Assembly: GCA_964500365.1 (NCBI GenBank)
Contig: CAZCPB010000002.1
Location: forward strand, 1 to 51,569
Length of the DNA stretch: 51,569 nucleotides
Reading direction: 5' to 3'
From: an uncultured Phycisphaeraceae bacterium
GTDB taxonomy: Bacteria > Planctomycetota > Phycisphaerae > Phycisphaerales > UBA1924
The translations under genes and the position numbers were made by a program. The notes under the pieces are model-generated. The model was given only the letters and a program-made list of their open reading frames with translations. It made no database searches and was not told the origin of the DNA. Every line of letters begins with the position of its first letter. Within the stretch, counting starts at the first letter, position 1. Positions 11,964 to 16,919 of this stretch are shown piece after piece.

Positions 11964-12821
11964 GTGAGCACCGAGATCCCCGCGACCCTCGCCGAGATCC
12001 TCGAGCACAAGCGTGCCGAGGTCGCGCGGGCCAAGTCGACCACGACCTTCGCCGAGCTCGAAGCGATGGTGGCGCAGGAAGAACCGCCCCGGAACTTCTT
12101 CGCGGCCGTGACGCGCCACCCGTACCCGACGCACACGGCGGTGATCGCCGAGGTCAAGCGCCGCAGCCCTTCGGCGGGGCTCATACGGCCCGAGTACGGC
12201 GAGGCGTTCTCCCCGGAGGACATCGCCAGACGGTATCACCAGGCCGGCGCCGCCGCGATTTCCTGCCTCACCGACGAGAAGTTCTTCGGCGGCCACCTGA
12301 CGTTCATCCGGCGGATCAAGGAGGCGGTGCCGCTCCCGGTCCTTCGCAAGGACTTCGTGATCGACCCCTGGCAGCTCTGGGAGAGCCGGGCCCACGGGGC
12401 CGACGCGGTGCTGCTGATCGCCGAGTGCCTCACCGAGGGGCAGCTCCTCGACATGATGATCCTTTCGCAGCAGCTCGGCCTCACGGCCCTGCTCGAAGTG
12501 CACGAGCTCGACAACCTCCTGAAGGTCCGCCCCCACGTCGGGTTCCCCCACCGCAGCTACGGGCTGATCGGGATCAACAACCGCGACCTGTCGAGCATGA
12601 AGACCGATATCAACCACACCCTCCGTCTGGCCGATCTTGTGGAGGACCGCAGCGTACTGGTCAGTGAGTCGGGCATCCGCACGCCCGCCGACCTCGACCG
12701 GCTGCGGGACGTGGGGGTCCGGATCGTGCTCGTCGGAGAGCACCTCATGCGTCATGCCGACCCGGGCGCGGCGTTGGGCGCCCTGCTGGCGCCCGGGAGC
12801 GGTCGCCCCGGCGCGGGATGA
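11964..12821 (+). CDS. trpC: indole-3-glycerol phosphate synthase
   Basis: 'IAEVKRRSPSAG', 'ISCLTDEKFFGG', 'LRKDFVIDPWQ', 'LLEVH', 'IGINNRDL'. GTG start. Confidence 0.9.
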   Translation: MSTEIPATLAEILEHKRAEVARAKSTTTFAELEAMVAQEEPPRNFFAAVTRHPYPTHTAVIAEVKRRSPSAGLIRPEYGEAFSPEDIARRYHQAGAAAISCLTDEKFFGGHLTFIRRIKEAVPLPVLRKDFVIDPWQLWESRAHGADAVLLIAECLTEGQLLDMMILSQQLGLTALLEVHELDNLLKVRPHVGFPHRSYGLIGINNRDLSSMKTDINHTLRLADLVEDRSVLVSESGIRTPADLDRLRDVGVRIVLVGEHLMRHADPGAALGALLAPGSGRPGAG

Positions 12822-12850
12822 CACCCGGGAACGGCACAACGGAGTTCGTG

Positions 12851-14314
12851 ATGCACCGCTACGCACTGCTCAGTCTCGGGATCGCGCTGCTCTCCGCGCA
12901 CGCTCAGCCGCCCGGAGAAGCACCGGCTAAGGACGATCCGCCGGCCGAGACGGCCGACGCGCCGCAGCCCGAGGCGCCGGGCGCCAACCGGCCCGCCGCC
13001 GGCGCGCCGCGCCCGAAAGTCGCAAACGACCCGATGAGCGAACTCGGCGGCTCCGACGAGGCCAAGGCGATCCTGCGCGAGACCCTCGACGCCGTGGCCA
13101 AGGCCAGGACGCTGGTGTTCCACTCGCGCACGACGAACACCGGCTCCCTCGCCGGATACAGCGCCGACACCGTCGCGGTCGTCCGCATGCGCCGCGCCGC
13201 CGACCGGCCCGGCGCGTGGCAGTTGCACGTGACGGGCTCCGGGACGCGCAAGGGCGAGGAAGAGGCGACGAGCATCGACGTCGTGTGGGGGCCGATGGGC
13301 GCGACCTGGCTCGACCACGGCGCCAGGGCGTTGTACGAGCGCCCGACGGCGCAGAGCTCGGTCAAGCTGGTGCAGATGGCGCTGGGCTGCGTGCCCACGC
13401 AGCTGCTCGAGAAGAACAGCTTCTCCCGCGAGACGGGGGCCCTGCACGTGTCGCTCGACGCGACCGAGCGCGTGGACGGGATCGAGTGCCACGTCCTGTC
13501 CTTCAAGGCGCGGAAGGGGAGTTCGACCTCTCGGATCTGGATCGGGGTCTCGGACCGCCTGCCGCGAAAGTTCGAGCGCTCCAACGAGCTCAAGGCGTAC
13601 GCCAACACGACGACGTTCGAGCTCTCCGACCTGCGCGCCAACGAGCCGCTCACCGAGGAGGACTTCCGCGTCGAGCTGCCCGAGGGGTACGAGCGCATCG
13701 CGTCGTGGACCTCGCAGCCCAACGCCCGCAACCCGGCGGCCGTCACGCCGCCGAAGACCACGGCGGCGACCGCCGCGGCCCCGTCGCCCGCGCCGCGGCG
13801 GGCCGAGCCCAGGCCCGCGCCCGCCCCGCTCGCCCCCGACTTCGACCTGCGCACGCCCGACGGAGAGCACTTCACGCTCGCGAAGCTGAGGGGGCGTGTC
13901 GCGGTGCTCTATTTCTGGGGCACGTGGAGCCTTCCTGGGCGGGCCGGGATCGCGGCCCTCCAGGGCATCCTGGAAGAACTGGAGGACCGGAAAGTCCGTA
14001 CGCTCGCGATCGCGGTCCGCGAGCGCGACAAGACCGCCCCCGTCGAGTTCCTCAAGGCCTCGTCCAGCACGGTCACCCCGCTGCTCGACGGCGAGAAGAC
14101 GGCGAGCGCGTACGGTGTGGTCGTCTTCCCCACGTTCGTCGTCCTCGACCGCAACGGGGCCAAGGTCGGCTCCGTCGAGGGCTTCAAGGGCGAGACGACC
14201 GCGGAGGCGGTCCGCGCCCTGATCGACGCGGCCCTGGCGGTCGAGGTGACGGCGGTCGACGTGGAGGTATCCGCCGTCGAAGAAAACCCCGCGATCGCCC
14301 CCGATGGGAACTGA
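12851..14314 (+). CDS. secreted protein with an N-terminal LolA-like/unknown domain and a TlpA-like thioredoxin-fold domain lacking the CXXC motif
   Basis: Signal peptide MHRYALLSLGIALLSAHA, with GGAG 8 nt upstream of the ATG at 12851. The C-terminal region 'FDLRTPDGEHFTLAKLRGRVAVLYFWGTWSLPGR...VFPTFVVLDRNG' aligns with the TlpA/ResA redoxin pattern. An alternative start at 12818 (ATGA) overlaps the trpC stop. Confidence 0.7.
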   Translation: MHRYALLSLGIALLSAHAQPPGEAPAKDDPPAETADAPQPEAPGANRPAAGAPRPKVANDPMSELGGSDEAKAILRETLDAVAKARTLVFHSRTTNTGSLAGYSADTVAVVRMRRAADRPGAWQLHVTGSGTRKGEEEATSIDVVWGPMGATWLDHGARALYERPTAQSSVKLVQMALGCVPTQLLEKNSFSRETGALHVSLDATERVDGIECHVLSFKARKGSSTSRIWIGVSDRLPRKFERSNELKAYANTTTFELSDLRANEPLTEEDFRVELPEGYERIASWTSQPNARNPAAVTPPKTTAATAAAPSPAPRRAEPRPAPAPLAPDFDLRTPDGEHFTLAKLRGRVAVLYFWGTWSLPGRAGIAALQGILEELEDRKVRTLAIAVRERDKTAPVEFLKASSSTVTPLLDGEKTASAYGVVVFPTFVVLDRNGAKVGSVEGFKGETTAEAVRALIDAALAVEVTAVDVEVSAVEENPAIAPDGN

Positions 14315-14394
14315 GCGGTGCCCGCCGCCGCGCCCGGAATGCCCGGTCGTAAACCCGCTTGAGCCCGAAGCACCGCCCGCGTATGCTTTCCCCC

Positions 14395-14451
14395 ATGAAG
14401 CCGGCCTCCTTCACCACGACGACGACCACGACGAACTCTCCCCGCGGGTGA
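14395..14451 (+). CDS. putative Thr-rich leader peptide (MKPASFTTTTTTTNSPRG) upstream of thrS
   Basis: 18-codon ORF with seven consecutive Thr codons (ACC ACG ACG ACG ACC ACG ACG, 14413-14433). It is followed by a GC hairpin and T-run and lies 168 nt upstream of thrS. Confidence 0.5.
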   Translation: MKPASFTTTTTTTNSPRG

Positions 14452-14477
14452 GGCCGGCCCGCACGACGCCCATCATC

Positions 14478-14511
14478 GAACCCGGCCGGCCAGGCCGGGT
14501 TCATCGTTTTT
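14478..14511 (+). terminator. candidate intrinsic terminator/attenuator hairpin in the thrS leader
   Basis: 10-bp stem gaacccggcc (14478-14487) / ggccgggttc (14493-14502), loop ggcca, then atcg and TTTTT (14507-14511). An alternative 8-bp GC pairing exists between ggccggcc at 14452-14459 and at 14484-14491. Confidence 0.5.
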
Positions 14512-14618
14512 GGAGACAGTCGAACCTGCAGCGGGGAAGCGAAACTCTGAGATTCGAGATTGAGACGGAGACTTGACCGACGTTCTCCGTTCAATCACCA
14601 CCCCGCCCCCTATCCGAG

Positions 14619-16919
14619 ATGCCAGACACTGAGACCCCCATGCCCACCATCACCCTTCCCAACGGCGACAAGAAGTCCTTCGACAAGCCCGTGACCGCGC
14701 TCGAGGTCGCGGCGTCGATCGGCGCGGGCCTGGCCAAGGCCGCGATCGGCGCGCGGATCGATCTCGGCGAAGGCCACGGCGCCCAGCTCCGCGACCTCTC
14801 GGCCGTGATCGAGAAGGACGCGGCGCTCGCGATCGTCACTGCGCCCAGGCCGGGGCAGGCGGCGAGCCCGGACGCGCTGTACCTCATGCGCCACTCCGCG
14901 GCGCACGTGATGGCCGAGGCGATCCAGGACGTCATGGGCAAGGACGTGCTGCTGGCGTACGGCCCGCCCACCGAGACCGGCTTCTTCTACGACATGTTCA
15001 TCCCCGAGGGCAAGAAGCTCTCGACCGACCACTTCGAGGCGGTCAACGCACGAATCGCGGAGATCATCGCGGAGAACCGGCCGTTCGTCCGCTACGAGGT
15101 CGTCGCGCGCGACGGCATCGTGAAACTCATGAACGAGGAGAACAAGTACAAGGTCGACAACGCCAACCGCGCGCTGGTGGCCCAGGCCGAGCCGGGCGAG
15201 CGCGAGCGCCTCGCGGCCGAGCTCGACTCGCGCCACAAGATCCGGCGCGAGAACCCGTACGACTCCGCGGGCTGGCTCTCGAAGGAGCCCGCCGTGAACG
15301 GCGCGGTCCTGTCGTTCTACGCGACCGGCCAGCCCGGGAAGAACTGGGAAGACCTCTGCCGCGGCCCGCACGTCCCGAGCACCGGGCGCATCGGGGCGGC
15401 ACGCGTGATGTCGCTGGCCTCGTCCTACTGGCACGGCGACGAGAACTCCGACCGCCTGATCCGCGTCTACGGCACCGCGTTCCCGACCCAGGCCGAGCTC
15501 GACGCCTACCTGCGCCAGCTCGAAGAAGCCAGGGAGCGCGACCACCGCGTCATCGGCAAGCGCCTCAGGCTCTTCCACATCGACGAGGACGTCGGCCAGG
15601 GCCTGATCCTCTGGACCCCGCGCGGCTCGATCATCCGCAAGGAACTCCAGACCTTCATCGGCGCCGAACTCAAGCGCCGGGGCTACACCGAGGTCTTCAC
15701 CCCGCACATCGGCCGGCTCGAGCTCTACAAGACCAGCGGCCACTTCCCCTATTACAAGGACAGCCAGTACCCGCCGATCGTCGAGCGCGACGCGCTCGAA
15801 AAGCTCTGCAAAGAAGGCTCCTCGTGCGCCGAAATGATCAACCGCGTCGAGGGCGTCTCCGCGCGCCTCGCGGCGGGGATCAACGAACGCACCGGCACCC
15901 AGACCATCGCCCCCGAGCGCGTCATGGCCGACGACATGCTCCTGGACGGCTACCTCCTCAGGCCCATGAACTGCCCCCACCACGCCAAGATCTTCGCCAG
16001 CAGCCCCCACTCCTACCGCGACATGCCCGTGCGCCTCGCCGAGTTCGGCACCGTCTACCGCTGGGAGCAGTCGGGCGAACTCAACGGCATGACCCGCGTG
16101 CGCGGCTTCACCCAGGACGATGCGCACCTGTTCTGCACCGAGGAGCAGATCCCCGCCGAGGTCCAGGGCTGCCTCGACATCGTCAAGATCATCTTCGGCA
16201 CCCTGGGCATGAAGGACTACCGCGTCCGCGTCGGCCTCCGCGACCCCGACAGCGCCAAGTACACCGGCGCCAAGGAATCCTGGGACAAGGCCGAGGCCGC
16301 GTGCATCGCCGCCGCCGAATCCCTCGGCGTCTCCTTCTCAAAGGAACCCGGGGAGGCCGCTTTCTACGGGCCCAAGATCGACTTCGTCGTCAAGGACGTC
16401 ATCGGTCGCGAGTGGCAGCTCGGCACCGTGCAGGTCGATTACCAGATGGGCAACCGCTTCGATCTCTCGTACGTCGGGCCCGACAACAAGCCGCACCGCC
16501 CCGTCGTCATCCACCGCGCGCCCTTCGGGAGCATGGAGCGGTTCTGCGGCGTCCTGATCGAGCACTTCGCGGGCGCCTTCCCCACCTGGCTAAGCCCCGA
16601 GCAGGTGCGCGTGCTGCCCATCAGCGAAAAGAGCAACGAGTACGCGGAGCGGGTCGCCGCGGCACTGCGGGCGGCCAACGTGCGCGTGACCACCGACCTG
16701 GGCAACGACCGCGTGCAGGGGAAGATCAAGGTCGCGGCGGACGAGAAGATCCCGTACATGCTCATCGTCGGGCCGCGCGATGCGGAGCAGAACGCGGTGA
16801 GCGTGCGCGTGCGCGGGACCGAGAAGGACCTGGGGTCGATGCCGCTGCACAACTTTGTGGAAGCGATTACTGCGGAAATCAACGATCGGCGCGCGACGTT
16901 GAGTGTGCGACCAGGCTGA
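14619..16919 (+). CDS. thrS: threonine--tRNA ligase
   Basis: N-terminal TGS domain 'ITLPNGDKKSFDKPVTALEVA', editing-domain 'RHSAAHVMAEA', class II core 'RPMNCPHH', 'YRWEQSGELNGMTRVRGFTQDDAHLFC', 'HRAPFGSMERF', and an anticodon-binding tail. The start may instead be the second ATG at 14640 (MPTITLP). Confidence 0.95.
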   Translation: MPDTETPMPTITLPNGDKKSFDKPVTALEVAASIGAGLAKAAIGARIDLGEGHGAQLRDLSAVIEKDAALAIVTAPRPGQAASPDALYLMRHSAAHVMAEAIQDVMGKDVLLAYGPPTETGFFYDMFIPEGKKLSTDHFEAVNARIAEIIAENRPFVRYEVVARDGIVKLMNEENKYKVDNANRALVAQAEPGERERLAAELDSRHKIRRENPYDSAGWLSKEPAVNGAVLSFYATGQPGKNWEDLCRGPHVPSTGRIGAARVMSLASSYWHGDENSDRLIRVYGTAFPTQAELDAYLRQLEEARERDHRVIGKRLRLFHIDEDVGQGLILWTPRGSIIRKELQTFIGAELKRRGYTEVFTPHIGRLELYKTSGHFPYYKDSQYPPIVERDALEKLCKEGSSCAEMINRVEGVSARLAAGINERTGTQTIAPERVMADDMLLDGYLLRPMNCPHHAKIFASSPHSYRDMPVRLAEFGTVYRWEQSGELNGMTRVRGFTQDDAHLFCTEEQIPAEVQGCLDIVKIIFGTLGMKDYRVRVGLRDPDSAKYTGAKESWDKAEAACIAAAESLGVSFSKEPGEAAFYGPKIDFVVKDVIGREWQLGTVQVDYQMGNRFDLSYVGPDNKPHRPVVIHRAPFGSMERFCGVLIEHFAGAFPTWLSPEQVRVLPISEKSNEYAERVAAALRAANVRVTTDLGNDRVQGKIKVAADEKIPYMLIVGPRDAEQNAVSVRVRGTEKDLGSMPLHNFVEAITAEINDRRATLSVRPG

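Follow-up and report, generated by a model that had tools for sequence, protein, structure and literature searches.

In Escherichia coli, the aminoacyl-tRNA synthetase (aaRS) operon pheST is under leader-peptide attenuation (pheM), and in enterobacteria the leader thrL, which contains Ile codons in addition to its Thr codons, controls the biosynthetic operon thrABC. Here, we describe an element of comparable layout upstream of thrS, the threonyl-tRNA synthetase (ThrRS) gene, in an uncultured Phycisphaeraceae bacterium (contig CAZCPB010000002.1; the window, in what follows, is the whole stretch analysed, 51,569 nucleotides (nt), or 51.6 kb). A short open reading frame (ORF) with a run of Thr codons is followed there by a terminator hairpin and carries, at its stop codon, a sequence able to compete with that hairpin. 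Judging from the sequence and its conservation, it is highly likely that this element is a ribosome-mediated (leader-peptide) transcription attenuator tying thrS expression to the supply of charged tRNA-Thr.

The element resembles E. coli pheST/pheM in that a short leader ORF rich in cognate codons precedes alternative antiterminator and terminator hairpins. The two differ in the amino acid (Phe there, Thr here), in the start of the leader, which in pheM is led by a Shine-Dalgarno (SD) sequence whereas here it is predicted to be leaderless, and in the host, a gammaproteobacterium in the case of pheST; there is no sequence relationship between them. With the enterobacterial thrL (Rfam Thr_leader, RF00506), it shares a Thr-codon run as the sensor and the classical 1:2 / 2:3 / 3:4 hairpin logic. 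Rfam Thr_leader gave no match at E values up to 10 in the interval 13800-15200 and none at the gathering score window-wide, and the resemblance to the thr-operon leader is one of analogy, not homology.

Attenuation of aaRS genes has been predicted in several other lineages. In Streptomyces lividans TK24, a leaderless thrL of 18 amino acids precedes thrS and was proposed to be a Thr-dependent attenuator, and leaders were also described for alaS, trpS and leuS (PMC8079986). The element studied here is likewise a predicted leaderless ORF of 18 amino acids upstream of thrS, but the S. lividans thrL contains two Thr and a hairpin without a U-rich tract, whereas here we find seven Thr, a canonical terminator and a co-varying antiterminator, in a different phylum. 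Leader-peptide attenuation was also predicted for trpS and leuS of Streptomyces, in a study that cites pheST as a precedent for aaRS attenuation (PMC1262725), and for hisS paralogues of Bacillus (PMC2965389). For Deinococcus deserti, 14 leaderless leader peptides have been predicted, which belong to aaRS and amino-acid genes (PMC4007540). These Deinococcus and Streptomyces leaders share with the present one, as far as their main texts describe them, an ORF that is enriched in the cognate residue and predicted to act by attenuation, and it begins at the 5' end of the transcript, as is predicted for the present leader; they belong to other lineages, their sequences differ, and no thrS element of the present type appears in those main texts (PMC4007540, PMC1262725). 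A sequence-only reading of this stretch had considered a Thr leader peptide on a synthetase gene unusual, which overstates the case given the precedents in pheST, in Streptomyces trpS, leuS and thrS (PMC1262725, PMC8079986) and in the Deinococcus aaRS genes (PMC4007540).

The T-box of Firmicutes thrS and the operator of E. coli thrS also raise ThrRS when tRNA-Thr charging falls or ThrRS is limiting. The T-box senses uncharged tRNA and the E. coli operator binds ThrRS, whereas here there is neither a T-box match nor a conserved anticodon-like loop. Rfam models, T-box included, returned nothing relevant at E values up to 10 (13800-15200) or at the gathering score (whole window), and no operator of the E. 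coli type was recognised: the conserved hairpins lie between 79 and >800 nt from the thrS start, with loops that are either variable or GCCGG. We found no such element in Planctomycetota or Phycisphaerae in the literature searched, which excluded the full text of Lopatovskaya et al. 2010 (attenuation of aaRS operons). The thrS element is undescribed for this gene and lineage in that literature; its mechanism is a textbook one, and the conceptual advance is modest.

The leader ORF and its threonine run

The element and the gene that it precedes comprise the following features:

14359 to 14364, plus strand: predicted -35 box TTGAGC, read from the sequence, 17 nt upstream of the -10 box
14382 to 14387, plus strand: predicted -10 box TATGCT, ending 7 nt before the leader ATG; the TANNNT spacing is kept in relatives
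14395 to 14451, plus strand: leader ORF (thrL-like), MKPASFTTTTTTTNSPRG plus stop, read from the sequence; equivalents of 10–21 amino acids in relatives
14400 to 14421, plus strand: region 1, 5' portion of the leader ORF that contains GCCGGCC and three Thr codons at the start of the run, predicted to pair with region 2
14413 to 14433, plus strand: seven consecutive Thr codons (ACC/ACG), read from the sequence; runs of at least four in 48 of 72 loci
14443 to 14462, plus strand: region 2, made up of the final leader codons, the stop, the core GGCCGGCC (14452-14459) and CGC; includes predicted hairpin P1
14478 to 14502, plus strand: predicted terminator hairpin, with region 3 as the 5' arm (14478-14487), the loop (14488-14492) and region 4 as the 3' arm (14493-14502)
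14503 to 14511, plus strand: interrupted U-tract ATCGTTTTT; family tail consensus TTT(n)TTT
14640 to 16919, plus strand: thrS, threonyl-tRNA synthetase, the putatively regulated gene, identified from its Pfam domains and conserved N-terminus; in-frame alternative ATG at 14619

The leader runs from ATG 14395 to a TGA ending at 14451, and the seven Thr codons that would be regulatory occupy 14413-14433 of its 18 codons, exactly as the sequence-only reading had placed them. On both strands of the window, it is the sole short ATG ORF that combines a run of at least four identical residues with a properly spaced -10 box. The 61 leaders tabulated from the relatives' loci (described below) are 10–21 amino acids long (median 16) and contain 4–11 Thr each, with up to eight Thr per run, and a median of five codons separates the run from the stop codon. 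The conserved parts of these peptides are the Thr run and the last two, C-terminal codons, while the remainder is variable, a pattern typical of regulatory leaders and not of functional peptides. The locus labelled Phycisphaera mikurensis (L036) has both a leader, MHPARTSTTNDH, and a terminator.

The C-termini of the 61 leaders are mostly RG, SG or TA, with Gly as the last residue in 31 and Ala in 16, and the stop codon is UGA in 41. The conservation of these endings is accounted for by their codons, which pair within the predicted hairpin at the stop codon (see below); that the bias might additionally affect the speed of termination at the stop codon is speculation.

Conservation among Phycisphaerae

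We compared the window with 80 thrS loci from Phycisphaerae genomes, metagenome-assembled ones included, taking one genome per species; their ThrS proteins are 68–80% identical to that of the window. Under a strict criterion (an ATG ORF of at most 25 amino acids with at least four consecutive Thr, on the thrS strand), counted in the 72 loci with at least 1 kb of upstream sequence, a Thr-run leader was detected upstream of thrS in 48. The same criterion yielded 0/72 in each of four control regions (the reverse strand, the thrS coding sequence on either strand and the DNA 1.5-2.5 kb upstream), and equivalent run leaders for each of the other 19 amino acids were also absent (0/72 each). This last result rules out a frame-agnostic ACG microsatellite, since such a repeat would in some loci read Arg or Asp. 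From the ATG the repeat always reads Thr, with the Arg or Asp frames in 0/72, and the proposal is not overturned on this ground.

When the criterion was loosened to at least four Thr in eight residues, with manual inspection, leaders including these variants were recognised in about 68 of 78 usable genome loci. The element was replicated in a second, independent set of 80 metagenome loci (ThrS 63–82% identical), being present in 41 of the 75 that were usable. A composite scan for a -10 box, an ATG 5–9 nt downstream, an ORF of 6–32 amino acids and a terminator within 100 nt, run over all loci and the window (636 kb, both strands), returned 43 matches, each a thrS leader, and no leader with a run of another amino acid was found in the window or in the relatives' flanks.

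The element is always on the thrS strand and directly upstream of thrS, or of a DUF6487 gene followed by thrS, though the upstream neighbours vary. Its distance to the thrS start ranges from 79 to >800 nt across loci, sometimes with another gene between. On the conservation check that the sequence-only reading had proposed, most Phycisphaerae relatives do have a Thr-run ORF before thrS, together with the terminator and the complementary sequence at the stop codon. In the metagenome loci L141-L154 and others with ThrS identity of 65% or less, many of them on lake contigs (Ga0315xxx, Ga0209xxx), no Thr leader or terminator was detectable within 1.15 kb upstream.

The predicted terminator and its competitor at the stop codon

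The 10-bp hairpin at 14478-14502 is present as had been described, with eight GC pairs and a 5-nt loop; followed by ATCGTTTTT, it was called by a terminator scan and has a predicted energy of -21.1 kcal/mol. A hairpin with the core CCCGGC(C)..(G)GCCGGG lies 22–47 nt after the leader stop codon in nearly all leader-bearing loci. Across the family, the stem measures 7–14 bp, the loop of 3–9 nt is conserved neither in sequence nor in length, and the T-rich tail, TTT(n)TTT, has a median of five T in 9 nt. Aligned with MAFFT over 51 loci, the stem reaches 90.9% pairing; five of its ten pairs are changed on both sides, and its covariation lies above all 500 shuffles and every slid register. The 4-nt atcg that separates the stem from the run of T had been listed as a weak point; the spacer is there, and it forms part of an interrupted T-tract that is the family consensus. 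The closest relative, L081, has the tail ATCGCTTTTG.

Two other assignments of the hairpin were rejected. One made it the terminator of the AhpC-like gene that lies upstream of the element, a gene whose synteny is limited to L002, whereas the element accompanies thrS everywhere; the other took CCCGGC..GCCGGG for a generic terminator hairpin of these genomes, which it is not in the flanking 636 kb.

Directly 3' of the leader stop codon, at 14452-14459, lies GGCCGGCC, and a second copy occupies 14484-14491; both copies are where the sequence-only reading had put them. The second copy, within the 5' arm and loop of the terminator, is the predicted antiterminator partner of region 2, and in the window the two 8-mers pair at -19.4 kcal/mol when the terminator 3' arm is absent. 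The antiterminator core begins 0–3 nt past the stop codon, a geometry that fits masking by a ribosome positioned at the stop. Sequence matching 5–8 nt of the terminator 3' arm begins between -2 and +3 nt of the first post-stop base in 48 of 62 loci, and shuffled and upstream control sequences gave shorter matches to that arm. The post-stop sequence changes with the terminator: loci with CCAGC 5' arms have GCTGG at the stop codon in eight of nine cases, and loci with CCGGC 5' arms have GCCGG in 47 of 48. In the alignment, the five core pairs of the antiterminator are 85–96% paired, and the variable pair, 30-76, is CG in 41 loci, UA in five and UG in one, a change shared by both terminator arms and the post-stop element.

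Positional conservation and covariation both back a pairing between the post-stop 8-mer and the 5' arm of the terminator, as had been proposed. That the antiterminator overlaps only part of the stem, which had been counted as a weakness, is correct, and the partial overlap is conserved family-wide. On this comparative evidence, the post-stop element is the predicted antiterminator strand, mutually exclusive with the terminator.

Pairing partners that would recapture the antiterminator strand

In the minimum free energy (MFE) fold of the window leader, 14400-14421 (region 1) is paired with 14443-14458 at -24.1 kcal/mol. Folding predicts this long-range 1:2 pairing for 20 of the 61 loci, closest relatives included. 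The terminator 5'-arm core is repeated in the 5' half of the ORF in 21 of the 62 loci, compared with 5% of control windows. Region 2 can also fold locally into a hairpin, P1, formed in the window by 14444-14449 with 14457-14462 (-11.5 kcal/mol). Roughly two thirds of loci have a predicted pairing of this kind, in which the final two sense codons plus part of the stop codon join sequence just past the GCCGG core and leave the core in the loop, with stems such as GCGGATG/CATCCGC, CACGGGTG/CACCTGTG and TCGCCTG/CAGGCGA. Stems of at least 6 bp at the stop codon are present in 41 of 62 loci, against 25% of shuffles. For 30 loci selected for having a stem, and with a user-specified structure, seven of eight P1 pairs were changed on both sides, with a covariation score of 0.306 compared with 0.114 ± 0.02 for shuffled and at most 0.103 for slid registers. 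By these folds, the window has a predicted anti-antiterminator, which across the family is heterogeneous, being the long-range 1:2 pairing in some loci and the local stop-codon hairpin in most of the others.

Predicted promoter and leaderless start

A TANNNT hexamer ends 6–12 nt (mostly 7–10) before the leader ATG in 58 of 62 loci, and all remaining upstream positions combined hold about eight. TTG-containing hexamers stand at a similar -35 distance in several relatives. The promoter of the window fell below the threshold of a generic sigma-70 promoter scan, each of its hexamers matching at 4/6 positions, and the stretch from the terminator to thrS showed no promoter-like site there. From this spacing, we infer that transcription probably starts at or next to ATG 14395 and that the leader mRNA is probably leaderless. 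The absence of an SD sequence had been noted as a weak point; it is indeed absent, and since a -10 box 6–12 nt before the ATG predicts a leaderless transcript, its absence would be explained. Another in-frame ATG, at 14383, falls inside the predicted -10 box and is probably not a start codon.

Proposed mechanism

In the mechanism that we propose, the promoter (-35 box at 14359-64, -10 box at 14382-87) would start the RNA at or next to ATG 14395, and the 18-codon leader would be translated leaderless. With plentiful Thr-tRNA, the ribosome would pass the seven Thr codons, reach the UGA at 14449 and cover GGCCGGCC at 14452-59; once the ribosome is released, GGCCGGCC would be recaptured by 14400-21 or by P1. 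Covered or recaptured, GGCCGGCC would leave the terminator (14478-14502) and its U-tract to form, and transcription would end before thrS. With scarce Thr-tRNA, a ribosome stalled on the Thr run would mask region 1 and GGCCGGCC would stay free to pair with 14484-91 before the terminator 3' arm exists, in which case no terminator would form and RNA polymerase would enter thrS. We infer from the arrangement of the conserved parts where the ribosome would stand, that termination in vivo would be intrinsic and how thrS would respond to threonine. The folding comparison that had been suggested as a check gives values that fit a switch, with -21.1 kcal/mol for the terminator and -19.4 for the antiterminator, alongside -24.1 for 1:2 and -11.5 for P1 in the window. 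Overall, this is very probably a classical ribosome-sensing attenuator, kept in about 100 related Phycisphaerae genomes.

Several observations weigh against this interpretation or narrow it. About ten of the 78 genome loci are without the element, as are nearly all loci with ThrS identity of 65% or less; as judged from these sequences, the predicted attenuator is limited to part of the class or was lost in the clade at or below 65% identity, which places the family boundary inside the class. The association between terminator arm and post-stop sequence (counts 8/1/1/47, Fisher 5e-8) comes from a test that ignores shared ancestry. Covariation in the antiterminator amounts to one variable position, the other four core pairs being invariant and uninformative. 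The anti-antiterminator is heterogeneous: the long-range 1:2 pairing is found in the 20 of 61 loci already mentioned, and in 29 of 61 the antiterminator core is unpaired or in a loop. The covariation of P1 was scored on loci chosen for their stem, and RNAalifold, applied to a MAFFT alignment of the stop-codon region, returned no P1 consensus. In the window alone, the first tail position is A, which makes its U-tract the weakest in the family. Finally, MFE folds computed with the ribosome footprint masked gave a weak separation, which we do not count as support: the 5' arm of the terminator came out sequestered in 49 of 62 loci under a stalled ribosome, compared with 37 of 62 when the ribosome stood at the stop codon. 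GC-rich RNA readily finds alternative partners.

Alternative explanations

Stalling at the Thr codons could be sensed with a different output, namely Rho-dependent polarity or an effect on translation or mRNA stability, which we regard as unlikely. The interrupted U-tract of the window, starting with A, and the weak discrimination in the thermodynamic simulation of terminator and antiterminator speak for it. Leaderless attenuators based on upstream ORFs have also been reported elsewhere, being proposed for example for some mycobacterial Cys upstream ORFs (bioRxiv 10.1101/834739), and the S. lividans thrL lacks a clear U-tract according to its authors (PMC8079986). Yet nearly every locus has a GC-rich stem of 7–14 bp and a T-rich tail (median five T in 9 nt) at a fixed distance; together with the 3'-arm copy conserved at the stop codon, this arrangement specifically marks intrinsic terminator/antiterminator switching. 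It is less likely still, and indeed very unlikely, that the unit is an independent small gene with its own terminator, for a small RNA or a micropeptide rich in Thr, and that thrS is transcribed from a separate downstream promoter. The unit does have its own predicted promoter and terminator, and released attenuator RNAs and leader peptides such as rnTrpL and peTrpL can act in trans in other bacteria (PMC6614838, PMC7298713). Against this, the peptide is conserved only in the Thr run and in C-terminal codons constrained at the RNA level, the unit always lies on the thrS strand directly before thrS or DUF6487-thrS despite differing upstream neighbours, the terminator of an ordinary gene has no use for a conserved, co-varying competitor of its arm, and in the window no promoter-like site separates the terminator from thrS.

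Protein-mediated autoregulation through a ThrRS operator, with the Thr-codon ORF incidental, has its model in E. coli, where ThrRS represses its own mRNA via tRNA-Thr-like hairpins (also mentioned in PMC2965389). It is extremely improbable here: the terminator loop varies in sequence and length (3–9 nt), the sole conserved loop motif, GCCGG, complements the terminator arm and is no anticodon-like NGU triplet, and an element 79 to >800 nt away from the thrS start is too distant to cover the ribosome-binding site of that gene. An operator would moreover leave the Thr-specific ORF (48/72 loci, 0/72 in controls) unexplained. The last explanation, a chance ACG/ACC microsatellite beside the terminator of the upstream AhpC-like gene, draws on the GC-rich genome, in which ACG/ACC repeats and GC hairpins are easily found, and on the position of the hairpin 164 nt downstream of the stop codon of that gene. 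We count it as refuted, for the repeat reads Thr from the ATG and never Arg or Asp, about 100 loci keep the element with differing codon choices, the element is conserved while the upstream gene is not, and hairpins of this type do not serve as generic terminators in the flanking DNA. A leader-peptide attenuator of thrS thus remains the interpretation that we favour.

The thrS gene and its surroundings

The thrS gene of the window (14640..16919, plus strand) encodes the Pfam domains TGS, tRNA_SAD, tRNA-synt_2b and HGTP_anticodon. The ThrS N-terminus MPTITLPNGD, which is kept in relatives, maps by homology to ATG 14640, so that the gap before thrS, given as 304 nt in the sequence-only reading with ATG 14619 as the presumed start, becomes 325 nt. 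From this start, the protein has 759 amino acids, and about 170 residues without a Pfam match lie between TGS (10-74 of the 766-amino-acid ORF) and SAD (242-284). The E. coli ThrRS has about 640 residues; the long form is common to all relatives retrieved. Exact look-ups of the ThrS protein, with either candidate start, returned no source contig, and an exact 40-mer search of metagenomes had no match.

Upstream of the element, window positions 12818-14314 encode a protein of 498 amino acids with a DUF2092 region and a C-terminal AhpC/TSA-redoxin domain, and it is this AhpC-like gene that is syntenic with thrS in L002 only, the closest genome relative. Within the 128 nt between the terminator and thrS (14512-14639), the MFE fold contains a second predicted stem-loop at about 14563-14599 (GAGAUUGAGACGGAGA...UCUCCGUUCAAUC). 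A conserved inverted repeat, CCCAGCGCNCGCTCGGCGTTGT, occurs inside the thrS coding sequence, about 520-545 nt from the start and on the minus strand, in about 14 loci (for example, L001:3539 and L003:3533); it was a false positive of the terminator regular expression that probably reflects conserved coding sequence.

The DUF6487 gene and implications

In 30 of the 80 genome loci, thrS is immediately preceded, on its own strand, by a DUF6487 gene (about 80 amino acids, CxxC...CxxC, Pfam E = 8.7e-08), as at L014:2686-2916, L001:2672-2929 and L012:2657-2908; in L038 and L040, the DUF6487 gene is followed by a second ORF. It stands between the attenuator and thrS in 24 of these 30 loci, with the element still at the head of the operon, and in that position it would be co-regulated with thrS. 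By tblastn, the window has no copy of DUF6487, nor any remnant of it between the terminator and thrS, where 14512-14639 corresponds to the position of the DUF6487 gene in the closest relatives. We put forward, as a tentative and rather doubtful extension, that these loci form a Phycisphaerae-specific class of leaderless attenuators in which the core is mostly looped on a stem containing the stop codon, and which in about a third of the species also governs the DUF6487 zinc-ribbon gene.

As a well-supported cis-regulatory RNA for an essential translation gene, the element adds to a phylum, the Planctomycetota, in which RNA regulation is almost uncharacterised. About 100 diverse examples, together with a consensus and covariation, would support a new family model. 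For annotation, it gives a reason to omit the short Thr-rich ORF or to call it correctly. With a leader peptide, thrS would have a third sensing strategy, next to the protein autoregulation of E. coli and the T-boxes of Firmicutes. The finding also links the uncharacterised DUF6487 family to the thrS operon, and if DUF6487 is indeed co-regulated by tRNA-Thr charging, its product may be an uncharacterised partner of ThrRS, a zinc enzyme, or of threonine or tRNA-Thr metabolism. For the Phycisphaerae themselves, the attenuator predicts leaderless translation and a tight coupling of transcription and translation and, if true, would be direct genetic evidence of obligatory transcription-translation coupling in Planctomycetota.

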